DNA from: Candidatus Korobacteraceae bacterium
GTDB taxonomy: Bacteria > Acidobacteriota > Terriglobia > Terriglobales > Acidobacteriaceae
Assembly (NCBI GenBank): GCA_049516475.1
Contig: JBEKTC010000004.1
Coordinates: 1-48,005 of the forward strand
Length of the DNA stretch: 48,005 bases
Direction: 5' to 3'
Both the position numbers and the translations under genes were made by a program. The notes under the pieces are model-generated. The model was not told the DNA's origin and did not search any database. It worked only from the letters and a program-made list of their open reading frames with translations. Positions 8,267 through 19,514 of the stretch are shown piece after piece. Every line of letters starts with the position of its first letter. Position 1 is the first letter of the stretch.

Positions 8267-9358
8267 TTGCAAAAACGAAAACTGCTTGCGCTGGATGGCG
8301 GCGGGATTCGGGGCGTACTGAGCCTGGGGATCCTGGCCAAGGTTGAGAAGATTGTAGGGAAGCCGCTGGGCGATTACTTCGACTACATTGGGGGCACCAG
8401 CACGGGAGCCATTATCGCGACCGGATTGGCGCTCGGGTTTAGCGTGTCGAAACTCCGGCAGTTTTACGATGACTGCGGGCCGATGATGTTCGAGCCGCGG
8501 TTTCTTCTGCAACGTTACAAGAGTCAATATGCGAGCGACCCGCTAAGGAAGAAATTGATGGACACCTTCGGGCCGGAACGAACGCTTGGCTCGGCGGATT
8601 TGAAGCCCAAGCTATTGATCATGACGCGAAACTGGACTACCGATTCGCCATGGCCGGTCAGCAATAATCCTGCTGCGAAATATAATGATCGCAACCGGCC
8701 AGACTGTAATTTAAACATTCCGCTTTGGCAATTGGTGCGGGCGAGCACGGCTGCTCCAACTTATTTTCCGCCGGAGGTTTTGAACTGGGACAAGGCAGAT
8801 TCCAGCAAGAGCTTCGCCTTTGTGGATGGCGGCATCACGCCGTATAACAACCCGGCATTTCAGCTGTTTCGAATGGCAACGCTCCCGGAGTACCGCCTGG
8901 GGTGGGAAACGGGCGAAGACAACATGCTGATTATTTCAGTCGGAACCGGGTCGGCGCCCTCGGCGGGACCCAGTTACGAGAATCCGGACAAGTCGATTCT
9001 CTCTCAAATTCCGGGATTGATTTCGGCGTTGATGTACGCAGCGGAAGTGGACCAGGATCTTAGCTGCCGCACGGTCGGAAGATGTGTTTACGGCCACGCG
9101 ATCGATCGCGAACTAGGAAATATGATTCCGGGTGCCGATCCGATACCGCAGAAAGCTTTTCGGTACGCACGCTACAACGCGGAGCTGACCGAAAAAGGAT
9201 TAGACGATGTTAAACTCGGCGAATTGAAGCCTAAGCTCGACGAACTCCTGAAAATGGACCTTGCCACACCGGAGAACATGAAGCGATTGAGGGTGGTGGG
9301 CGACGCCGTGGGGAGCGAAGTAAAACCGGAGCATTTCGGCGATTTCCTGGGCGCATAG
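8267..9358 (+). CDS. Patatin-like phospholipase (CapV-like size and motifs)
   Basis: TTG at 8267 with GAGAGAGGG upstream; the ORF track's start at 8063 adds 68 non-family residues. Oxyanion motif LALDGGGIRG. Nucleophile motif GGTSTGA, with Ser codon at 8399-8401. Catalytic Asp in FVDGGITPYNNP, codon at 8825-8827. Confidence 0.85.
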   Translation: MQKRKLLALDGGGIRGVLSLGILAKVEKIVGKPLGDYFDYIGGTSTGAIIATGLALGFSVSKLRQFYDDCGPMMFEPRFLLQRYKSQYASDPLRKKLMDTFGPERTLGSADLKPKLLIMTRNWTTDSPWPVSNNPAAKYNDRNRPDCNLNIPLWQLVRASTAAPTYFPPEVLNWDKADSSKSFAFVDGGITPYNNPAFQLFRMATLPEYRLGWETGEDNMLIISVGTGSAPSAGPSYENPDKSILSQIPGLISALMYAAEVDQDLSCRTVGRCVYGHAIDRELGNMIPGADPIPQKAFRYARYNAELTEKGLDDVKLGELKPKLDELLKMDLATPENMKRLRVVGDAVGSEVKPEHFGDFLGA

Positions 9359-9370
9359 GAGACGGGAAGG

Positions 9371-11371
9371 ATGCAGGCATTTATTGTTCGGCCATTCGGA
9401 ACCAAGGGTGGGATCGACTTCGAAGCGGTTGATGAGAAGTTGATCCAACCGGCATTGAAAGAGGCGGAGATCACAGGAGGCACCACCGGGTCGATCCTGG
9501 AAGCCGGCAACATTCGGGAGGACATGTTTCAGTTGCTGCTGGTGGCGGACCTGGTGATTGCGGACATATCGATTCACAACGCAAATGTTTTTTATGAGTT
9601 GGGAATCCGGCATGCAGTTCGCGCGCGGCAAACGTTCATGATCCGGGCCAAGGGACAGAAGCCGCGAGTGCAGCGCGGGCCGGAGGATGAGGTTCCATTC
9701 GATCTGAAGACGGACCGGTATCTGGAATACGACGCGGCTAACCCCGGCGCGTCGCTGGCAGTGCTGGTGAGGGCGCTCAAGGAAACGAAGGCTTCGAGCC
9801 GGGTGGATAGCCCGGTGTTCCGATCGCTGCCGGGGCTGAAAGAGACGGAACGGTCGAAGTTGAGCGCGGTGCCGGCGGATTTCGCAGACGAGGTGAACCT
9901 GGCGGCGAGCAAGGCGCAGGGCGGAAAGCTGGGGCTGCTGGCCCGAGAGGCTGGGCGCTTCTTATGGGAACAAGAGGGCCGACGGCTGGTGGGGCGCCGT
10001 CAATTCAAGGGTAAGTTCTTGGTCTCCGGGCGCGAAACCTGGGAATCCGTAACCAGGCAGGAGCCACTCGATCCAGAAGCGAACCTGATCCTGGGGACGA
10101 TACACCAACGTCTGGGCGATCTCACGCAATCCGACCAATGCTTGCAACGAGTGCTCGAAAACCCGGCGGTCCGCAAGGAAGATCGGGCTGAGGCGCTAGC
10201 CTTGCGAGGCCGCAATCAAAAGGCGATGGGGCGGGCGCTGTGGGGAGACAAGGACCAGGCGGCGAAGCGTGCGAGCGTGATCGGGAAAGGGTTGTTCGTA
10301 CTAGCGAGAGATCTCTATGCGGAGGGATTCAAGTGCAACCTGGACCACTTCTACTCGGGACTAAACGCGCTCGCACTTTCGGTGTTGCTGATCGAGCTCA
10401 TCGGCCAGGAACAGGAGGCGTGGAAGGAGACCTTCGATAGCGACGTCAAAGCGGCGCAGGCAGAGGAAGATCTGAAGACAAGCCGGGATCGATTGGCCGG
10501 AGCCGTGGGGATATCCCTGGAGGCGGCTGAAGAGGCGGACCTCAACTCCGGCAACCCCGATATCTGGTTAGCAGTTTCCAAAGCCGATTACCTATTTCTG
10601 ACCGCCAAGAGAGATGCGGCAGCCGCGGCGGCATACGAGCGCGTCGCGATCGGACTCCAGCCGTTCGAGCGTGGGGCCGTACGAGATCAACTCGAAATGT
10701 TTGCGGAAGTGAGTGTGCGCGCCGACCGGGCCCGGTTGTGCCTTGAAAAGTTAGGAGCAGCTGCCGAGTCGGCACCGGCGCTACGGCAAGTGATTCTGTT
10801 CACTGGACACATGATCGATAAGCCGGACCGAAAAGAGCCGCGCTTTCCGGCGAGCGCGGAGGCGCGGGCGCGAGCGGCCATCGAGAACGAGGTGCGGCAG
10901 TTGGTGGAGGCGCTTCCGGGACCCGCGCTGGGAGTTGCGGGCGGAGCGAATGGAGGAGACATTCTGTTCCATGAGATCTGCGCGTCACTGAAGATTCCGA
11001 CGCGCGTTCTGTTGACGCTGCCGGAGGGCCCGTTCATCGCAGAGTCCGTGGCGGGCGGAGGGCCGGGTTGGATTGGGCGCTTCAATTCACTGATGACCAG
11101 CCATCCCGGGAAAAATGAGGTGCAGGTGCTGAGCGGGTCGAAGGATCTGCCGTCGTGGATGCGTGCACCGGCGGGCTACGATGTGTGGCAGCGAACGAAT
11201 ATCTGGCTGCTCGAAGAAGCGCTGGCGAGCGGAGCGCCCAATCTGTCATTAATTGCGCTCTGGGACTGCAAGAGTGGCGATGGTCCGGGCGGCACGAAGG
11301 ATCTGGTGGAACAGGCGCGGAAACATGGCGTAAATACGATCCTTCTGGATACTACTGCGCTTTTTGCTTAA
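9371..11371 (+). CDS. Three-part protein: N-terminal nucleoside 2-deoxyribosyltransferase/TIR-like flavodoxin-fold domain, central TPR-like (DUF4071-like) helical region, C-terminal SLOG-like (LOG/YpsA/ThsA-C-like) domain
   Basis: Starts 12 nt after the patatin stop, with GGAGACGGGAAGG upstream. N-terminus: MQAFIVRPFG...ADLVIADISIHNANVFYELGIRHA (nt 9545-9616). Middle: helical repeats including DHFYSGLNALALSVLL. C-terminus (nt 10781-11368): VILFTGHMID..., the glycine loop GVAGGANGGD (nt 10940-10960) and GDGPGGTKDLV (nt 11276-11308), which resembles the LOG PGGxGT motif. Confidence 0.7.
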   Translation: MQAFIVRPFGTKGGIDFEAVDEKLIQPALKEAEITGGTTGSILEAGNIREDMFQLLLVADLVIADISIHNANVFYELGIRHAVRARQTFMIRAKGQKPRVQRGPEDEVPFDLKTDRYLEYDAANPGASLAVLVRALKETKASSRVDSPVFRSLPGLKETERSKLSAVPADFADEVNLAASKAQGGKLGLLAREAGRFLWEQEGRRLVGRRQFKGKFLVSGRETWESVTRQEPLDPEANLILGTIHQRLGDLTQSDQCLQRVLENPAVRKEDRAEALALRGRNQKAMGRALWGDKDQAAKRASVIGKGLFVLARDLYAEGFKCNLDHFYSGLNALALSVLLIELIGQEQEAWKETFDSDVKAAQAEEDLKTSRDRLAGAVGISLEAAEEADLNSGNPDIWLAVSKADYLFLTAKRDAAAAAAYERVAIGLQPFERGAVRDQLEMFAEVSVRADRARLCLEKLGAAAESAPALRQVILFTGHMIDKPDRKEPRFPASAEARARAAIENEVRQLVEALPGPALGVAGGANGGDILFHEICASLKIPTRVLLTLPEGPFIAESVAGGGPGWIGRFNSLMTSHPGKNEVQVLSGSKDLPSWMRAPAGYDVWQRTNIWLLEEALASGAPNLSLIALWDCKSGDGPGGTKDLVEQARKHGVNTILLDTTALFA

Positions 11372-11759
11372 GTAACCAGGCCGCGCCGTCTGCGCCGCCT
11401 GTGAACGTGTGCAGGAGGTGATGGTCTGCAACCCGGCGGGACGGCTAAGGGGAAAGGCAAATCGCAACGCCGGGTCCGTTACCTGATGCAAGAACCACCC
11501 AACCTCAATGTGCAACTCGCATGAAGCGAGGGCGGCTATTGGCAAGGAGCTGGACCGCTAAACTAGCAAAAGCAAACTCTCGACTAAAGCTCTCATCCAT
11601 CCAGACCTCACGACCTGCGCTAGTTTTTCAACAGTCTCGCTAGATTTCGGGCAGGCTCGGGATCCCGGCGACACGTGCGTCGGGGGCCGAGGCTGCATCA
11701 ATCCGCAAACGCGAACTCCTGAGGAAGGGATGGTTCCTGCGAAACTAATTGATTTAATT

Positions 11760-11836
<77 letters not shown>

Positions 11837-12021
11837 TTCAATGGCTTACGGATGCTGCTGTGTCGCGCGATGCGCATGATCGTGAAGGCATCGACTCCCG
11901 GCTCACCAAGCCTCGTCAGCATTGTATGGCACGCGGCATCGCAAGCCAACGTGCTGGTGGGCCTAAACGGAAGACGGGTTGATAGCCCACCGTCACGATC
12001 AAAATTTACCGCCGCCCGCAG

Positions 12022-12879
12022 CTACGCCCTATTGACATTCGAGGCCGAATCTACGTACTTGATGAGCAGCACCTCGTTGCCGATATCACTGTAAATCAAC
12101 TCATCCACGGTGCCACCGGCCAGAAGAAGGCCGTATCCCCCGGGGCGCATTCCTTCTGCTTCGCGCTGCGCAATGTGGGCCGCGGGATCGTCAGCCGGAT
12201 TTGCAATCGCCGCATGGCTGAGCGATTCGCGGCGGAAACCAGCACCGGGATCGCGTATGTAAAACACCATGGCTCTTGCAGTGCGAACGGCCGCGACTTC
12301 AACCACCTGCTCGGGATTGAACGCCGCTCCATGTTCCATGGCGTTCAGTAAAATCTCTCGCAACGCCTGCATCATTTCCTGCCGGGTGTCCTCAGGTAAT
12401 CGAGCACTCAACTCGTTCGCAAAAGTCATAAGGCGCTCGGCTGTAATGAGGCGGCAATTTACGCGGACTGACACCCAGCCAGGCTTGGCCGAGAGAATTT
12501 GTATGTCGTCCAGTCCTTGGCTGTCGGAGGCTGCGCTACAGGCCAGGTTCGCGATCTCGTCCGCATCGAATGGAGGAGTGAAACAGGCGAACACCCGTGC
12601 ACGCAGGGCAGCGATGACTTCGTCTGGAGTGCTTTGACGAGCCAGCAGGATGCTCTTCACCCCCGGCCGGATAGCGCGCATCTCCTCCAGCAGCGCCAGA
12701 TCCTCCTCGACTGTACTGTCGGGACTAGTGATGACGACCCCGAACGATCGCATCCGCAACCTCTGCAGGGCATCAGCGTGCCCTGCCGAGTATTCCATGG
12801 GGAAACCGGTGGCAGAGAGTGCACTCACTATCTCCCGGCTCACCTGGGTCTCACTTCCAATGACTAGAACCCGGCTCAT
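12022..12879 (-). CDS. Atypical (pseudo-)receiver domain fused to a GHKL/HATPase_c anti-sigma-factor-like kinase domain
   Basis: The N-terminus has a CheY-like layout but reads VLVIGSET and VVITSPDS where the acidic pocket is expected. The C-terminus has REILLNAMEHGA...FYIRDPGAGF...GGYGLLLAGGTVDEL, typical of the RsbW/SpoIIAB-type ATPase fold. Confidence 0.65.
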   Translation of the reverse strand: MSRVLVIGSETQVSREIVSALSATGFPMEYSAGHADALQRLRMRSFGVVITSPDSTVEEDLALLEEMRAIRPGVKSILLARQSTPDEVIAALRARVFACFTPPFDADEIANLACSAASDSQGLDDIQILSAKPGWVSVRVNCRLITAERLMTFANELSARLPEDTRQEMMQALREILLNAMEHGAAFNPEQVVEVAAVRTARAMVFYIRDPGAGFRRESLSHAAIANPADDPAAHIAQREAEGMRPGGYGLLLAGGTVDELIYSDIGNEVLLIKYVDSASNVNRA

Positions 12880-13347
12880 GTTGTGCTCCCGGCGATGAAC
12901 TCAGCAATCTTAAATGCAGCACTTGTGCAGACAGATCATAGATCAAGAGGAGTGGGAACAATTCCGACCGAGTGACGGGCTGCACGGAAGTAGTTCATTT
13001 GGCCGGCTAACGAACTGAACAGGGGCGGGCGATGGCTGCGGTAAACGGGCCATGTCGCAAGAATCTTTGCGGCACATCGCAGGCTGGCGGTCACATCAAT
13101 CGCCCCTGCTATATCGGCTGCGGCACGGTGTGGGAAATCACGCCGTAAGGTTTCAGTTTTTTGGGGGATTACGGTTGCGAACACCTCCATTCTTAAACAA
13201 CACTCTTACGCTCGCTCAGTTTTCCAGAAACGACTATTTTGAGGATTGCCCGTTGCGCGAAAGAGTGCCAATCGGTTTTAATCTCCTTACATCCGGCGGG
13301 GTTCATTCAATGGCTGTGAGAAACCCTGTCGTACAGGAGCTCTTCGA

Positions 13348-14622
13348 GTGAAACATGTTGTGATCGTGGGAGGCGGTTTTGCTGGGCTGAACTGCGCCAA
13401 GAAGCTGGCTAAGCACCCTGACGTTCGGGTCACGCTGATCGACAAGAACAATTATCAGCAATTTCAGCCGTTGCTCTACCAGGTGGCTGGTGCGGCCCTG
13501 TCGCCAAGCAACATCGCTTTTAATTTGCGCAGTCTTCTGCGGGACCATCCCAATGTAGATGTCAAGATGTCAGAGGTCGTCTCGGTCGATCTCAACACGC
13601 GCACCGTCCATACCGCCGAGGGCCAGGCATATCAAGGCGATTTTCTGGTGCTGGCCGCCGGATCGCAGGCGAATTTCTTTGGCACACCCGGAGCCGACAA
13701 GCACAGCTATCCCCTGTACTCGCTACGTGACGCCGAGGCCCTTCGCTCGCGAGTCATCGCCGTTTTGGAATGTGCGGATCGCGATTCCTCGCTGGTTGCC
13801 AAAGGGGCGCTGAACTTCGTAATCGTCGGAGGCGGTCCCACTGGCACGGAAATGGCGGGCGCTTTCGGAGACGTATTTCATCATGGGCTGAAGAGAACGT
13901 TTGCCGACCTGAAGCTGCGCGGAGGAGAGGTTGTGCTCGTGGATGCTGGCCCCACTCTCCTAGGACCCTTCTCTCCCAAAGCCCAGGCCTATGCCAAAAA
14001 GACGCTGGAGCAACGCGGCGTGCAGATTCGGCTGGACACGCATGTGAAGGAGGTACATCCGGGCCACGTGGTGCTCTCCGATGGGACTACGATCCCCACC
14101 CACACGGTGATCTGGGCCGGAGGTCTCAAGGCTTCATCTTTATCGGAGAACGTAGGAGTCAAGACTGGGCATGGCGGTCGCATTGATGTTCAGCCCGATC
14201 TCACCGTGCCTGGTTTCCCCAACGTCTACGCCTTGGGAGATTTCGCCAATATCGCCGGGAAAGACGGCAACCATTTGCCTCAGCTTGCCTCTGTTGCCGA
14301 ACAGTCTGGCAAGTGGTGCGCTAAGAATATCCTGGCTGACATTGCGGGAGAGCCAAAGGAACCATTCGACTATTTCGACAAAGGCATCATGGCGATGATC
14401 GGGCGTAACTCGGCCGTGGCTGAAGTCGGGGAGCATCGCCACGAACTTCAGGGGGTCGTTGCTTTTGCTGCCTGGGTAGGAGTACACGCTGCTCTGTTGT
14501 CTTCGACCCGTGCCAAGGTCGAAGCCTTTGTGGAATGGGCCTGGGACTATTGTGGCAGTAGCCGCGGCGATGCAATTCTCGATCGCCCGAAACAAAAGGA
14601 CATTGATTGGAACGATGACTGA
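13348..14622 (+). CDS. ndh: Type II NADH:quinone oxidoreductase (NDH-2)
   Basis: Two dinucleotide-binding motifs, VVIVGGGFAGL and FVIVGGGPTGTEMAG. ALGDFA motif. 424 aa. GTG start with CAGGAGC upstream. Confidence 0.85.
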   Translation: MKHVVIVGGGFAGLNCAKKLAKHPDVRVTLIDKNNYQQFQPLLYQVAGAALSPSNIAFNLRSLLRDHPNVDVKMSEVVSVDLNTRTVHTAEGQAYQGDFLVLAAGSQANFFGTPGADKHSYPLYSLRDAEALRSRVIAVLECADRDSSLVAKGALNFVIVGGGPTGTEMAGAFGDVFHHGLKRTFADLKLRGGEVVLVDAGPTLLGPFSPKAQAYAKKTLEQRGVQIRLDTHVKEVHPGHVVLSDGTTIPTHTVIWAGGLKASSLSENVGVKTGHGGRIDVQPDLTVPGFPNVYALGDFANIAGKDGNHLPQLASVAEQSGKWCAKNILADIAGEPKEPFDYFDKGIMAMIGRNSAVAEVGEHRHELQGVVAFAAWVGVHAALLSSTRAKVEAFVEWAWDYCGSSRGDAILDRPKQKDIDWNDD

Positions 14623-14672
14623 CGGCGCGGATATGAAGAAAAAAACCGGCGCCACCGCTTAGTAACACCTGG

Positions 14673-14721
14673 CCGCGCTGTACCTCGGTCGCAGATCGTT
14701 CGCGACAAAAGTACAGCGCGG
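14673..14721. terminator. Nested inverted repeat between convergent ndh and htrA (possible bidirectional terminator)
   Basis: ccgcgctgtac (14673-14683) pairs with gtacagcgcgg (14711-14721). The loop contains a second hairpin, gtcgc..gcgac. No clear U-tract. Confidence 0.3.
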
Positions 14722-14735
14722 TCCCGGTCCTGGAG

Positions 14736-16262
14736 TCAGGCTCCGTTGGTAGCGTGCAGAACGCGGAAAGTATTGCCGCCGTTCGCCCAGATGAGCACCA
14801 GAGCATCCTGTCCCTTGGGAACGCTGGCCAGCGCCTTCTGAACATCGGAAGCGCTCCTAGTCTCGTGACGATTGACGCCGACGATGACCTGTCCAGGCTG
14901 CAAGCCGGCGTCGTCCGAGGGACTGCCCGGCTGCACCTGCTGGATCACCGCTCCGTGCAACTCGTCAGGCGCGCCGATTTGCTGGCGCACGTCGGGAGTC
15001 ATGTCGGTGATACCCAGGCCCCAGCGCGGCTTGTCGTTCGCGTTGTCGGCAACTTTGGTTTCGCCTTTGTCGCCGTCCATGCTTTCCAGCGTGATCGGCA
15101 CGGAGATCGACTTGCCATCGCGCACCAACTGCAAGGCAATCTTCGTTCCCGGAGTCATCTCCCCGACTTCCATCTGGAGTTGTCCGGCGTCGCTGACCTT
15201 CTTGCCGTTGATTTCGGTGATCACATCGCCGACCTTCAGCCCAGCCTTGGCTCCCGGTGAATCCGGTTCCACCTGCGTAACCACTGCTCCATTGTTGTCG
15301 CGGACGTCGAAGAATTTCGCATTCTCCGGGGTAACGTCGGTGATGCCGACGCCCATCCGCCCGTGGCTGACCTTGCCGTCGCGCACCAGCGACTGGACCA
15401 CCGGACTGACAATCTGGGTGGGGATGGCAAAGCCCATTCCGGAGAACGATCCGGAGGTCGAGAACAGAAACGTGTTGATACCGACCACCTCGCCACGAGC
15501 ATTCACCAGCGGGCCACCCGAGTTGCCGGGATTAATGGCGGCGTCGGTTTGGATGAACTGCCCCGGCTTGCGGGGATCGTCACGGTAAGGATTGGGGCGA
15601 TTCAGCGCGCTGACGATACCGCGAGTCACGGTAAAGCGGAAGCCGTAGGGATTGCCGAAGGCGAGCACGGTCTGTCCTGGGTGTAACGCGGACGAGTCGC
15701 CGATCGGAATGTTGGGAAGGTTCGTAGCATCGACCTTGATGACCGCCAGATCGGTCAGCGGATCGGTGCCGACGACTTTCGCCGTCAGGATTCGCCGGTC
15801 GCTAAGCGTCACCTTGATCTCGGTTGCGCCATCGACCACGTGATTGTTGGTAACAATGTAGCCGTCAGGCGAGATGATGACGCCGCTGCCGATGCCATGC
15901 TCGATGCGGGGCTGCGGCTGCATTCCCTGACCGCCGAATTGCTTGCCCCCAAATTGCTGGAAGAAGCGCTGCATTTCGTCAGGCATGCCTTCAGCAGCAG
16001 TCTGTTGCTTCTCGCGCGAGGTAACAGCGACGTTGACGATGGCCGGCGTCACGCGGGCGGCGACGGCTTCCATGGCCTGATCGAGCGAAAGCAATGCGCC
16101 GACCTGGCTGTTGTCCAGCGGTGCGGTGTTGGACGAGACTCCGGCTCGCGCCGGAGCGAACGAGCTGTAAACCACGACGGCGGCAACGAGCGCAAGTGTC
16201 AGCACTACGGCCGCGGGTTGCTTACGGCAAGCTTTCCATCCACGGTTGATCCAAGCTTTCAT
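14736..16262 (-). CDS. Do/HtrA-family periplasmic serine endopeptidase with two PDZ domains
   Basis: Catalytic His (TNNHVV), Asp (DLAVIKV) and Ser (GNSGGPLVN). Two PDZ-like segments. Start placed at the ATG at 16262 because AGGAGA lies 9 nt upstream; the ATG at 16283 contains that SD. Confidence 0.88.
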   Translation of the reverse strand: MKAWINRGWKACRKQPAAVVLTLALVAAVVVYSSFAPARAGVSSNTAPLDNSQVGALLSLDQAMEAVAARVTPAIVNVAVTSREKQQTAAEGMPDEMQRFFQQFGGKQFGGQGMQPQPRIEHGIGSGVIISPDGYIVTNNHVVDGATEIKVTLSDRRILTAKVVGTDPLTDLAVIKVDATNLPNIPIGDSSALHPGQTVLAFGNPYGFRFTVTRGIVSALNRPNPYRDDPRKPGQFIQTDAAINPGNSGGPLVNARGEVVGINTFLFSTSGSFSGMGFAIPTQIVSPVVQSLVRDGKVSHGRMGVGITDVTPENAKFFDVRDNNGAVVTQVEPDSPGAKAGLKVGDVITEINGKKVSDAGQLQMEVGEMTPGTKIALQLVRDGKSISVPITLESMDGDKGETKVADNANDKPRWGLGITDMTPDVRQQIGAPDELHGAVIQQVQPGSPSDDAGLQPGQVIVGVNRHETRSASDVQKALASVPKGQDALVLIWANGGNTFRVLHATNGA

Positions 16263-16637
16263 GTTTCTTTTTTCTCCTGCCAATCAAAAGATTGCGTGAA
16301 CCGACACCTCCGCGCTCTTCCGGCGACGATGTACCGAAAATGCCGAAAGGCACTGATTTTTATGAACCGGACGGGCCGGACAAACGACGATGAATTACCA
16401 GCCGCGCTCCGATGTTCTCACTGGGGAGGTCCAACATGGAATTGGACGACGCCTCTGTCAAAACGTAAGCAGACGGGATTAACCGATGTTCGGACGGGTC
16501 TGGAAATGCCTCGGCACACTGATCCGGCGATCCTCCAGAAACTCGCGGGCGGCTGGATTCCCAGCGCGGGCGGCTAGTTGATTGACTGGCGAATACCGTA
16601 TCCCTAAGATGAAGTGGCCCAAAGGTCACAAACCCTA

Positions 16638-19514
16638 ATGATTGACAAGGTGATCTCGCACTACCGCATCGTCGAGGAAATCGGCGGCGGTGGAATGGGA
16701 GTGGTGTACAAGGCCGAGGACGCCCGCCTGGGCCGGTTTGTCGCTCTTAAGTTTCTTCCCGACGACGTCGCCCGCGACCCTCAGGCGCTCGAACGCTTCC
16801 GCCGCGAAGCCCGCGCCGCTTCGGCCCTGAACCACCCCAACATCTGCACGATCTACGACATCGGCGAGCAGGACGGCCGCGTCTTCATGGTCATGGAGTT
16901 CCTCGACGGCGTAACTCTCAAGCATCGCATCGCCGGGCATCCGCTGGAGATGGAAGATCTGCTCCGAATCGCCATCGACATTGCCGATGCGCTGGACGCC
17001 GCGCACAGCGAAGGGATCCTGCACCGCGACATCAAGCCCGCCAACATCTTCGTCACCAAACGCGGCCACGCCAAGGTCCTTGATTTCGGCCTGGCCAAGG
17101 TCACCCCAACCGCCAGTTCGTCCAGCAAGCACACGTCGGCCACAGAGCTCTCTGCCACCATAACCCTCGAACAACATCTCACCAGCCCAGGGTTTGCCGT
17201 CGGTACGGTAGCGTATATGTCGCCCGAACAGGTCCGCACCAAAGAACTGGATAACCGCAGCGACTTGTTCTCGTTCGGCGTGGTCCTGTACGAAATGGCC
17301 ACTGGTATTGCTCCATTCCGGGGAGAAAGTTCGGGAGTCATCTCCAAAGCTATCCTGGACGCCTTGCCCGCCGCACCCATCCGATTTAATCCCGATGTGC
17401 CGGCGGAACTGGAACGGATCATCAACAAGGCACTAGAGAAGGACCGCGATTTGCGCTATCAGCACGCGGCGGAAATGCGGTCAGACCTGCAACGACTGAA
17501 ACGGGATATGGATGGCGGTCACACCTCCGCAGTGACGGCGGTTACAACGTCCTTGCCACAACCGCCGGCGACTTACCGCAGCAGGCTTTGGAAGATCGCG
17601 CTTCCCGCTCTCCTGGTAGCGCTGCTGGTCGCGGGCTGGTTTTACTATCGGCCACATCAAACCAGGCCGCTTACCGACAAAGACAGCATTGTCCTCTCCG
17701 ATTTCGTCAACACCACGGGCGACAGCGTCTTCGACGACACTTTGAAGCAGGGTCTATCCGTGCAACTTGAGCAGTCACCTTTTCTCGACCTGGTTTCCGA
17801 GCGCAAGGTGAACGAGACGTTGAAAATGATGGGCCGTTCCACCCCCGATCGTCTTACGCCGGAGATCACACGCGAAATCTGCCAGCGCACCGGAAGCAGG
17901 GCCATGCTGAGCGGCTCGATTGCCGCCCTCGGCAGCCAGTATGTAATCGGCCTGAAAGCGCTGGACTGCAACACCGGGGACGTGCTGGCGGAGGCGCAGG
18001 AGCAGGCAGCGAGCAAGGAAGCGGTGCTGAAGGCTTTGGACCGCGCTGCGGTCAGCTTGCGCGGCAAGCTGGGCGAGTCGCTCAGTTCGGTGCAGAAGTA
18101 TGCGACGCCGGTGGAGGAAGCGACTACGCCATCTTTGCAAGCCCTGCAGGCCTACAGTCTGGGAAATAAGACGCGGGCTGCGAAAGGTGATGCTGCCGCC
18201 CTGCCGTTCTACAAGCAGGCGGTGGAACTAGACCCGAATTTTGCCATTGCCTACCGGTCCCTGTCGGTGGTGTACGGCAACCTCGGCGAGTTGGGCCGGG
18301 CAGGTGACAATTCACGCAAGGCTTACGAACTTCGGGCTAAGGTGAGTGAGAGGGAGCGCTTTTCCATCGAAGCGATGTATTACACCTACACTACTGGGGA
18401 GTTGGAGAAGGCAATTGAGATCTACCGGCTCTGGCAGCAGACCTACCCGCGAGACTATTTGCCTTGTACGAATCTGGGCGATGTCTACGGCAGCCTGGGA
18501 AGCTGGGAGAACGCCTTGCAGGAATCACAGGACGCGCTGCGCCTGGAGCCGAACGATGAGAACAACTATCTCAACCTCGGCAGCGATTACGCCAGCCTCA
18601 ATCGGCTGAACGATGCGGAGACGGTGTACAGGCAGGCCGAAGAGCGCAAGCTGGAAAGTGAGTACCTTATAGCAAATCGCTACCAGTTGGCCTTCCTCAA
18701 AGATGACAAGGCCCAGATGGCGCAGCTGGCAGCAGCCGCTATTGACAAGCCCGGCGCGGAAGACCTGGTTCTGGCCTATCAGGCGGACACTGCGGGCTGG
18801 TATGGAAAGATGAAAAACGCGCGCGCGCTGTCGCAGCGGGCGATGGAGGTAGCCCAGCACAACGATGCTAAAGAGCAGGCTGCACTGTACCAGGCGACGG
18901 CGGCGCTTCGCGAGGTAGAAGCCGGCGACCGGGAGCAGGCCCGTAGCGACGCCACGGCCGCGGTGAAGCAGGCGCCAAACCGTGACGTGCGGGCGATTGC
19001 GGCCCTGGCCCTGGCGCGGGCAGGCGATGAGGCAGGCGCGGACAAACTGGCGGCGGAGCTCGACAAGGCGTTCCCGCTGGATACGCTGATCCAGCGCTAT
19101 TGGCTGCCGACCATTCGAGCCGCCAATGCACTGCAGCGCAAAGACCCCAACCGGGCCATCGATACATTGCAGGTAGCAGCCGCCGTCGAACTCGGCGAAA
19201 TCGCGCAAGTAACGGTGTTTCTATGCCCCGCGTATGTGCGGGGAGAAGCCTATCTCATGCTCCACGACGGCAAGGCCGCAGCCGCGGAATTCCAGAAATT
19301 CATTGACCACTCGGGACTGGTGGTCAACTTTCCATGGGCGGCCCTGGCTCGCCTCGGTCTGGCGCGCGCTTACGCCCTCGACGCTGCCAAAGACCCCGCA
19401 GCCCGCGACAAGGCACGCACCGCCTATCGTGATTTCCTCACGCTATGGAAGGACGCAGACCCCGACGCTTCAATCCTGAAGCAAGCCCAGGCGGAGTATG
19501 CAAAGCTGGGTTAA
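16638..19514 (+). CDS. Hanks-type Ser/Thr protein kinase - TM helix - extracytoplasmic/TPR repeat region
   Basis: Kinase motifs [31 protein letters not shown] and SPEQ. TM helix [21 protein letters not shown]-like repeats in the C-terminal half. Start set at [11 protein letters not shown]. Confidence 0.88.

Follow-up and report, generated by a model that had tools for sequence, protein, structure and literature searches.

The window analysed here is a 48,005-nucleotide stretch of DNA from Candidatus Korobacteraceae bacterium (Acidobacteriota; GenBank assembly GCA_049516475.1, contig JBEKTC010000004.1, positions 1 to 48,005 of the forward strand). Our subject is a gene for a 666-residue protein, hereafter the core protein, which lies directly downstream of a patatin-like phospholipase gene in an islet (3.4–11.4 kb) that also encodes a TIR-like protein. 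The original prediction, made from the letters alone, had described the core protein as a nucleoside deoxyribosyltransferase (NDT)/TIR-like head, a tetratricopeptide repeat (TPR) scaffold and a SLOG-like tail. Each of these elements survived testing, structure searches returned matches for both terminal domains, and the homologues are linked to effectors. The features on which the argument draws are as follows.

3432–6410, plus strand: 992-residue protein with a TIR-like domain, a transmembrane (TM) segment, a charged coiled coil and ~14 WD40 repeats; candidate signal-producing sensor partner
8117–11372, plus strand: limits of the patatin and core cassette, 3.26 kb, with 95.4% DNA identity to two related contigs (L087/L088)
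8267–9358, plus strand: patatin-like phospholipase, CapV-like, 363 residues from TTG 8267 (the longest open reading frame starts at 8063); presumed executioner
9371–11371, plus strand: core gene, ATG start, 666-residue three-domain protein (DrHyd/CMP-hydrolase-like head, TPR-S solenoid, SLOG-like tail)
9371–9865, plus strand: N-terminal α/β domain (residues 1–165), a predicted N-glycosidase head of the DrHyd/nucleoside-deoxyribosyltransferase/CMP-hydrolase-like kind
9866–10753, plus strand: α-helical TPR solenoid (residues ~166–461), its helices seen in the AlphaFold2 model
10034–10378, plus strand: Pfam TPR-S (PF20308, 'Tetratricopeptide Repeats-Sensor'), residues 222–336, E 5.5e-10
10778–11368, plus strand: C-terminal Rossmannoid domain (residues ~470–666), a divergent SLOG-like (YpsA/DprA-like) domain with FTGHxxD, RFP, AGGAxGGDxxFHE, WQRxNxW and DGPGGT motifs

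The core open reading frame was found exactly as predicted, from an ATG at 9371 to 11371 on the plus strand. Its ATG follows the TAG stop codon of the patatin gene (9356–9358) after a gap of 12 nt, and the Shine-Dalgarno-like GGAGACGGGAAGG lies between the two genes. The adjacent lipase of the original prediction is thus a patatin (Pfam Patatin, E 7e-27). More than 3,694 database proteins match the core protein at E ≤ 1e-3, a figure that is a lower bound at this threshold, and the 120 best homologues are all ~650–700 residues long and covered in full. In species-representative genomes 572 relatives were confirmed, including members of Acidobacteriota, Alpha-, Beta-, Gamma- and Deltaproteobacteria, Bacteroidota, Cyanobacteria, Chloroflexota, Nitrospirota, Actinomycetota, Verrucomicrobiota and Planctomycetota, a patchy distribution over at least ten phyla. 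All of the motifs that had been quoted from the sequence are present and fall among the most conserved columns of the family, a conservation far beyond chance.

An AlphaFold2 model of the whole protein, built with 40 homologues (predicted local distance difference test, pLDDT, 88.5; predicted template modelling score, pTM, 0.80), resolves an α/β part at residues 1–~165, an α-solenoid at ~169–461 and a second α/β part at ~473–666. Foldseek matches of this full-length model to the PDB were dominated by TPR proteins (OGT, SPY) and were uninformative for the terminal domains. Because these TPR matches swamped the search, the C-terminal domain was modelled alone and the viral fold library BFVD was searched as well. 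Sequence profiles of the whole protein and of the C-terminal domain matched nothing in the PDB but generic TPR chains and, over a short WxxR stretch, a xylanase inhibitor and TTK kinase; these hits were discarded as noise.

In the head, strand 61–65 is followed by the loop ISIHNAN and by a helix (71–83) that opens with VFYELG, so that a glutamate (Glu76) stands where the helix that follows strand 3 begins. A glutamate in this position is the hallmark of the TIR-DrHyd-SLOG class (PMC9503650). A 40-sequence full-length alignment shows F4, R7-P8-F9, G46-N47-I48-R49, D60, D65, N70, N72, Y75-E76-L77-G78 and R80 to be invariant, and E76, N70, N72, D65, R80 and H81 are still so in a 42-sequence alignment reaching down to ~44% identity. 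The family profile places ADxxxxNANVFYELG onto the catalytic GYELG of human DNPH1 (sub-threshold, E 0.2–0.5). Among viral folds the full model fits best to a CMP/hydroxymethyl-CMP hydrolase (E 6.8e-5); its viral matches also include a Cap12/Pycsar TIR protein. No Pfam model, PF05014 included, is reached by the head of the window protein. Among sub-threshold Pfam matches over 42 family members, Nuc_deoxyrib_tr is the commonest (9/42, best E 0.067), followed by TIR_2 and CAP12-PCTIR_TIR; TIR/TIR_2 models touch the head, again below threshold, in 2/42, and the PADLOC TIR effector model aligns with residues 43–96 at E 0.002. The head is better described as DrHyd-like than as TIR, DrHyd being the sister superfamily of TIR. 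The NDT/TIR-like assignment stands on the fold, the position of the catalytic glutamate, the CMP-hydrolase match and the sub-threshold NDT matches, although neither PF05014 nor a TIR model is reached at threshold.

TPR-S is the one Pfam family that the window protein reaches. A tblastn search of annotated plasmids with residues 1–460 matched 75 records, in which the genes hit bear the annotation 'TRAFs-binding domain-containing protein', 'DUF4071 domain-containing protein' or 'tetratricopeptide repeat protein'. These homologues are 400–450 residues long, match PF13281 (MAP3K_TRAF_bd) together with TPR-S, and adjoin one or two TIR-domain genes, often with a DUF4231 gene in addition. Rhizobium WP_012489397 (PF13281 E 8e-39, plus TPR-S) aligns with core residues 3–336 (BLASTP E 2e-28) and carries a motif, ADLTTANANVFYELGVRHA, nearly identical to that of the core protein; a Citrobacter homologue aligns with residues 15–156 (E 4e-19). 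The reference to a DUF4071/'MAP3K TRAF-binding' family in the original prediction was right for the family by way of these plasmid homologues, but the window protein itself falls below the PF13281 threshold and reaches TPR-S alone. Kinship with the effectors ThsI and BcTpr was tested on these same plasmid proteins, which have the same annotation and context and stand in for the validated proteins.

Type VIII Thoeris has as its effector ThsI, which is characterised as 'CMP hydrolase and TPR' and is sometimes co-operonic with the type VII SLATT effector ThsH (10.64898/2025.12.03.692087). Types VII and VIII are triggered by canonical cyclic ADP-ribose (cADPR), made by a TIR protein upon infection; ThsI-type relatives respond to externally supplied cADPR, and the TPR has been proposed as the cADPR receptor (10.64898/2025.12.03.692087). 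The N-terminal domain of BcTpr resembles the CMP N-glycosidase MilB, its N82A and E86A substitutions abolish both depletion of nicotinamide adenine dinucleotide (NAD+) and defence, it binds cADPR with a dissociation constant of 1.9 µM, and its head is reported to produce a cADPR isomer (10.1101/2023.05.26.542521). The core protein shares with these proteins an N-glycosidase-type head with TPR-S directly after it, homology over core residues 3–336 to plasmid proteins of that architecture and context, the same spacing of the presumed active site (core N70-A-N72-V-F-Y-E76, N-x-N-x3-E, against N80-P81-N82...E86 in BcTpr), and TIR and DUF4231/SLATT genes as frequent neighbours. By sequence, its head and TPR-S thus appear to correspond to an arrangement already known from ThsI, BcTpr and the 'core Tpr' of Burroughs & Aravind 2020, a catalogue that, in the account given by Liu et al., already held 'Patatin-Tpr' and 'YspA-Tpr' assemblies and fusions (10.1101/2023.05.26.542521). 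Unlike ThsI and BcTpr, which are ~400–450 residues long and end after the TPR, the 666-residue core protein adds a SLOG-like domain of ~200 residues that is conserved clade-wide, and because of this extra C-terminal domain it lies outside the strict ThsI definition.

The tail had been predicted to begin at nt 10781 (residue 471), which agrees with the first strand of the model (473–479). Across the alignments F477, G479-H480, D483, R491-F492-P493, G528, D530, W606, R608, N610 and G640-G641-T642 are invariant. Modelled alone (residues 462–666; pLDDT 92.4, pTM 0.90), the tail has Helicobacter pylori DprA as its top Foldseek hit in the PDB (E 8.4e-4), followed at ranks 2–4 by structures of a TRPM2 chanzyme with ADP-ribose (E 0.9–1.2e-3, TM-score 0.47–0.49) and at rank 5 by ShosA. 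Streptococcus pneumoniae DprA, TRPM8 and the LOG-like TM1055 appear lower in the list, with unrelated Rossmann-type folds mixed in from rank 6. The TRPM2 matches presumably run through its N-terminal SLOG-type (LSDAT) domain, a presumption since the hit table carries no target coordinates. Over the top SLOG-type hits, probabilities were 0.97–1.0, E ~1e-3 and TM-scores 0.37–0.49 (0.45–0.49 for the best of them). All members of the best-scoring group belong to the SLOG superfamily in the sense of Aravind and co-workers, though the scores are modest. The BFVD matches of the full model likewise include 'YspA cpYpsA-related SLOG domain' proteins, DprA-like proteins and, from a Marseillevirus, a Rossmann-fold protein that binds nucleotides.

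The window protein has no match at E ≤ 1 to curated SLOG hidden Markov models (HMMs; PF03641, PF06908, PF10686, PF02481, LSDAT and others), and neither the tail sequence of the window protein nor the family profile reached a PDB chain or a Pfam SLOG model. A permissive Pfam search over 41 C-terminal domains most often returned PF10686 YAcAr ('YspA, cpYpsA-related SLOG family'; 5/41, best E 7.9e-4), with DprA (PF02481) touched by one member (E 0.027). In LOG proteins (PF03641) a GGxxGxD/M loop follows strand 2 and a late PGGxGT loop precedes a helix. Both glycine motifs of the tail occupy the positions expected for LOG-type proteins: AGGAxGGD follows strand 519–523, strand 2 of the domain, and GDGPGGT lies between strand 624–631, the fourth core strand, and helix 642–651. 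The glutamate of the LOG motif PGGxGTxxE is not conserved, the residue two past T642 being D or H, which points to a binding domain, or at the very least to non-LOG chemistry. An exhaustive profile search for the tail gave 4,474 representatives of 50%-identity clusters (2,359 at E ≤ 1e-10), among which it is nearly always C-terminal in this same architecture.

The tail thus has in common with YpsA/YAcAr, DprA, the TRPM LSDAT domain and LOG a Rossmannoid fold, a GGxxGxD loop, a PGGxGT motif after strand 4 and, as described below, a linked or fused SLATT (the 'SMODS and SLOG-associating 2TM' domain). It differs from them in its sub-threshold sequence similarity, in the missing LOG catalytic glutamate and in its own FTGHxxD, RFP and WQRxNxW motifs. 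We provisionally file it as a divergent SLOG-like domain of YpsA/DprA type that so far has no curated model. The SLOG-like call of the original prediction is upheld by the fold, the glycine loops, the association with SLATT and TIR, and the sub-threshold YAcAr matches, but not by any curated SLOG HMM. Its likeness to the C-terminal domain of ThsA lacks specific support, since ThsA is outside the top structural hits.

The patatin gene most likely starts at TTG 8267, as suggested by the GAGAGAGGGA run upstream, a putative ribosome-binding site, and by the 363-residue call in the relative L087. The protein matches the PADLOC CBASS phospholipase model PDLC00758 (E 2e-46) and NCBIfam CBASS_lipase (E 2e-37, 129 bits, the equivalog cut-off of 200 not being reached), and its DGGGIRG, GTSTG and DGG motifs are intact. 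DNA similarity to L087 and L088, two contigs whose core proteins are 94% identical to ours, is confined to positions 8117–11372, and because it ends sharply on both sides, the patatin and core genes form a discrete 3.26-kb cassette. Promoter and terminator scans of the cassette gave hits no more frequent than in shuffled sequence. In L087 the same cassette has different surroundings, which suggests that it is shuffled among TIR/STAND-rich islets. Upstream of the L087 cassette (1–2400) lie genes for a Terminase_6C fragment, HNH_2 and DUF429, and downstream of it (11233–16147) a 531-residue TIR_2 gene followed by a 1,110-residue nSTAND1-WD40 gene.

Linkage to effectors is strong across the family. 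In 80 genome loci, of which 57 are well flanked (≥4 kb on both sides), a patatin homologue occurs in the flanks of 51/80, mostly on the same strand, immediately upstream of the core gene in 33 loci and immediately downstream in 8. Well-flanked loci contain a patatin in 38/57, a TIR gene in 21/57, DUF4231/SLATT in 4/57 and none of the three in 12/57. In 26/80 loci a TIR gene occurs no more than 7 kb from the core gene, and Pfam confirmed each of the 32 TIR candidates as TIR_2. WD40 propellers are present in nine of these TIR proteins, and the one that was examined individually has an FGE-sulfatase domain; such neighbours look like TIR-plus-sensor proteins. In L066 (Candidatus Binatia) and in the cyanobacterial L075, L076 and L080, a TIR-TM-WD40 gene on the same strand is the direct upstream neighbour of the core gene; in L078, from Chloroflexi, such a gene is found two genes upstream. 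A SLATT gene is found directly downstream of the core gene in L075 and L080, and DUF4231/SLATT genes adjoin it in the 7 loci of cluster 2 of the neighbour analysis. Cluster 1 of that analysis was set aside as a high-GC artefact of antisense open reading frames over patatin genes. Where no patatin is present, the neighbours include SLATT_1/DUF4231, TIR_2, a Tle1-like phospholipase, a calcineurin-like phosphoesterase, LSDAT_prok, nSTAND1 and an EEP nuclease.

Two further kinds of neighbour were observed. CHAT proteases of 900–1,900 residues are encoded within 2–3 genes of core homologues in L008 (11150–15992), L042, L047 and L064, some with α/β-hydrolase/DUF7379 domains. Proteins of ~940 residues (L005, 286–3093; L007, 1654–4506; L063, 1801–4623) combine TPR-S, a patatin domain and a hydrophobic C-terminus, so that TPR-S is fused directly to patatin within core loci; each is encoded two genes upstream of the core gene and an additional patatin of the ordinary type.

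Fusions tie the core protein itself to effector and sensor modules. Whole core proteins are joined to TIR_2 (P0146), to DUF4231 and SLATT_1 (P0264) and to SIR2_2 with an ABC-type ATPase (P0226); STAND NTPases precede the core protein in P0162 (NB-ARC) and P0204; and P0256 has a PNP_UDP_1 nucleoside phosphorylase where the head would be. Every one of these variants keeps the tail motifs intact. Glu76 of the head is lost in the SIR2 fusion P0226 (Gln, YQLG) and in the NB-ARC fusion P0162 (Leu, YLLG). This pattern fits a head that is a dispensable, swappable enzyme on a constant unit of TPR-S and SLOG-like sensor, the two glutamate losses being anecdotal. The proposal that the protein is the regulatory core of a system is reasonable, except that the head is probably an effector or enzyme, so that the role would not be purely regulatory.

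We favour the reading that a ThsI/BcTpr-type protein with an added SLOG-like domain forms, together with a CapV-like patatin, an abortive-infection module related to type VIII Thoeris, and we judge this somewhat more probable than all other readings combined. The scheme that follows goes beyond the observed domains, homology, cassette, linkage and fusions: in it we infer the ligand, the domain that senses it, the substrate of the head, the route of lipase activation and the phenotype of defence. First, infection would lead to an NAD+-derived nucleotide, cADPR or a relative, whose likely source, where one is present, would be a TIR-sensor protein such as that encoded at 3432–6410. Second, the TPR-S/SLOG-like part of the core protein would bind this signal. 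Third, binding would free the head to cleave N-glycosidic bonds of NAD+ or of nucleotides by means of the invariant Glu76. Finally, the patatin would be switched on and degrade membrane phospholipid, and the infected cell would die or arrest. The link to TIR genes and type VIII Thoeris, the cassette structure, the SLATT, TIR and SIR2 fusions and the earlier description of the head and TPR-S were all absent from the original prediction.

The candidate TIR partner of the window, the 992-residue protein, matches TIR_2 at E 1.6e-5 and 25.8 bits, just under the Pfam cut-off of 28; an independent TIR HMM scores it at 24 bits, and a glutamate occupies the catalytic position. Several observations weigh against the favoured reading. 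First, the gene for this protein is outside the cassette, two genes from the core gene, with an unrelated 490-residue orphan between them. Second, a TIR gene is found within 7 kb in only ~37% of the well-flanked loci, and a core relative 64% identical to ours has none within 8 kb, because of which a TIR signal cannot be obligatory in cis. Third, the maker of the signal is disputed, one study assigning it to a TIR protein (10.64898/2025.12.03.692087) and another to the Tpr head (10.1101/2023.05.26.542521). Fourth, two 'SLOG Patatin' systems gave no defence when tested in E. coli (10.64898/2025.12.03.692087). Finally, PADLOC has no model for the 666-residue core protein, and the SLOG call depends on modest Foldseek scores (E ~1e-3, TM-score < 0.5) and sub-threshold HMMs, with ThsA absent from the top matches.

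ThsA of type I Thoeris (SIR2-SLOG), 'SLOG Patatin' and 'SLOG and 4TM' follow a common logic of a SLOG-type sensor and a killing enzyme near TIR genes. The 'SLOG Patatin' effectors are single proteins listed beside TIR genes (10.64898/2025.12.03.692087), and by analogy they would follow the same SLOG-to-patatin logic as the core protein and its patatin. In our cassette, by contrast, separate genes encode the patatin and the SLOG-like domain, the latter within a protein that has an enzymatic head of its own. One fusion of the core family carries SIR2, as ThsA does (P0226), but ThsA is missing from the top structural matches of the tail and no Pfam SLOG model is reached. The system may be likened to ThsI combined with a 'SLOG-patatin' effector. 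The patatin is most similar to the lipases of CBASS, in which CapV is a cGAMP-activated patatin phospholipase, and shares their intact catalytic motifs; it differs in staying at 129 bits below the cut-off of 200 and in having a DrHyd-TPR-S-SLOG protein as its partner, and no CD-NTase or cyclase is present at the window locus. A patatin partner belongs to the core cassette and has no part in Thoeris of types VII or VIII, and whereas Thoeris is defined by TIR-containing operons, a TIR gene adjoins the core gene in about a third of loci.

The last point leads to the alternative that fares best, although we hold it to be unlikely: a TIR-independent two-gene system in which TPR-S senses a phage cue, the head makes a messenger from NAD+, the patatin is both receptor and effector, and the tail provides feedback, for example as autocrine amplification or a threshold. 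The patatin and core genes are the only constant unit and move as a cassette; 22/57 well-flanked loci have a patatin with neither TIR nor SLATT nearby, and ~60% of loci have no nearby TIR gene, nor does the 64%-identical relative. The closest relatives of the patatin, the cGAMP-activated lipases of CBASS, bind their signal directly, the BcTpr head is reported to produce a cADPR isomer (10.1101/2023.05.26.542521), and the nucleoside phosphorylase that replaces the head in P0256 is another base-releasing enzyme. On the other side, TIR genes are strongly enriched nearby (26/80 loci) and even fused (P0146), ThsI-type relatives answer to externally added cADPR (10.64898/2025.12.03.692087), the patatin remains under the CBASS_lipase cut-off, and a TIR partner could sit elsewhere in the genome.

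Two alternatives concern the tail. Instead of sensing the signal nucleotide it might break it down or modify it enzymatically, thereby setting a threshold or serving as an off-switch, with TPR-S as the real receptor. This would suit its many invariant, active-site-like polar residues (H480, D483, R491, D530, H534-E535, S559, R608, N610, T642), the existence of N-glycosidases among SLOG members, viral ones of which have been proposed to degrade cADPR-type signals (PMC9503650), and the TPR as proposed cADPR receptor of ThsI (10.64898/2025.12.03.692087). We nevertheless regard it as quite improbable, as the family does not conserve the glutamate of the LOG-type motif PGGxGTxxE, the folds matched best, DprA and the TRPM2 N-terminal domain, are those of non-catalytic binders, and the tail is kept intact in every effector fusion, as a sensor would be. 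Slightly less probable again is a DprA-like nucleic-acid-binding tail that senses phage single-stranded DNA, which would make the core protein a direct sensor-effector with no small-molecule messenger. Here H. pylori DprA is the top PDB hit, S. pneumoniae DprA and ShosA, a DprA-like defence protein, rank not far below it, one member touches PF02481 (E 0.027), and AGGAxGGDxxFHE bears what we take to be a resemblance to the DprA motif GxAxGIDxxAH. Against this, the ADP-ribose-binding domain of TRPM2 scores equally well, YAcAr is matched more often than DprA, and the partners are mostly those of nucleotide signalling (TIR, SLATT, SIR2, LSDAT, calcineurin-like phosphoesterase).

A non-immune pair serving housekeeping or stress signalling, which would regulate lipid or NAD metabolism in soil bacteria, would accord with the ordinary chromosome around the islet and the 12/57 loci that have none of the three marker partners, but we find it hardly credible given the patchy distribution over many phyla, the cassette-like mobility beside a transfer RNA (tRNA) gene, the effector swapping and fusions to TIR, SLATT, SIR2 and STAND modules, and the homology to a validated anti-phage effector class.

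If the abortive-infection reading is correct, the cassette would represent a further Thoeris-like configuration, in which one protein with an enzymatic head and two candidate ligand sensors drives a separate effector. The traits that distinguish the clade are the SLOG-like tail fused to the core, the patatin-paired mobile cassette, the facultative adjacency of TIR genes and its very large size. A bolder extension, to which we would assign a low probability, is that the family constitutes a distinct and widespread class of NAD-derived-signalling immunity with a two-tier or self-priming circuit: the head would make or amplify a messenger, the tail and TPR-S would read two inputs (for example TIR-made cADPR and a phage cue), and the patatin would execute. 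Such a TIR-optional circuit would differ from every Thoeris type defined to date. The system is suited to asking which domain perceives cADPR-type signals, the TPR of ThsI being only the presumed receptor, and it is relevant to whether a DrHyd head produces a signal or does no more than deplete nucleotides, a matter on which two preprints are at odds. The family also abounds in phyla of soil and freshwater that defence-system screens under-represent. Its importance is tempered by the fact that comparative genomics, as far as the sources drawn on here relate it, had already noted the architecture and its patatin and YpsA associations.

The Pfam families MAP3K_TRAF_bd and TPR-S, which describe the bacterial homologues of the head and TPR-S part, also describe the N-terminal region of metazoan ASK1/MAP3K5 kinases, unlike which the core protein has no kinase. 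A search of the PDB with the sequence profile of the core protein matched no ASK1 chain. Components of the ASK signalosome have been traced to bacterial conflict systems by Aravind and colleagues (PMC8195603).

Outside 3.4–11.4 kb the window is ordinary chromosome, with genes for a transketolase, PGI, peptidases and a Ser/Thr kinase. The remaining features near the cassette are as follows.

6516–7988, plus strand: 490-residue orphan open reading frame with no Pfam, PADLOC or NCBIfam match
11760–11836, minus strand: tRNA-Met (CAT), ~390 nt past the right end of the cassette at 11372
12022–12879, minus strand: 285-residue HATPase_c_2 protein (anti-sigma-factor kinase-like), downstream of the islet
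16614–19514, plus strand: 966-residue Ser/Thr protein kinase with C-terminal TPRs, downstream of the islet

No link of the HATPase_c_2 protein or the 966-residue kinase to the core system was seen in the window. The tRNA-Met gene is a possible integration landmark for the cassette. The 490-residue protein was considered as a member of the system and rejected, as it never recurs beside core homologues, lies outside the cassette and is a stand-alone orphan elsewhere. Its family comprises 95 homologues of ~480 residues in varied contexts, from Acidobacteria, Methylomonas, Thauera and Solirubrobacteraceae to the archaeon Methanothrix. This patchy distribution, together with its position in the islet, suggests a mobile or defence-related single gene. 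The Methylomonas copy adjoins AbiEi/AbiEii and a Y1 transposase.

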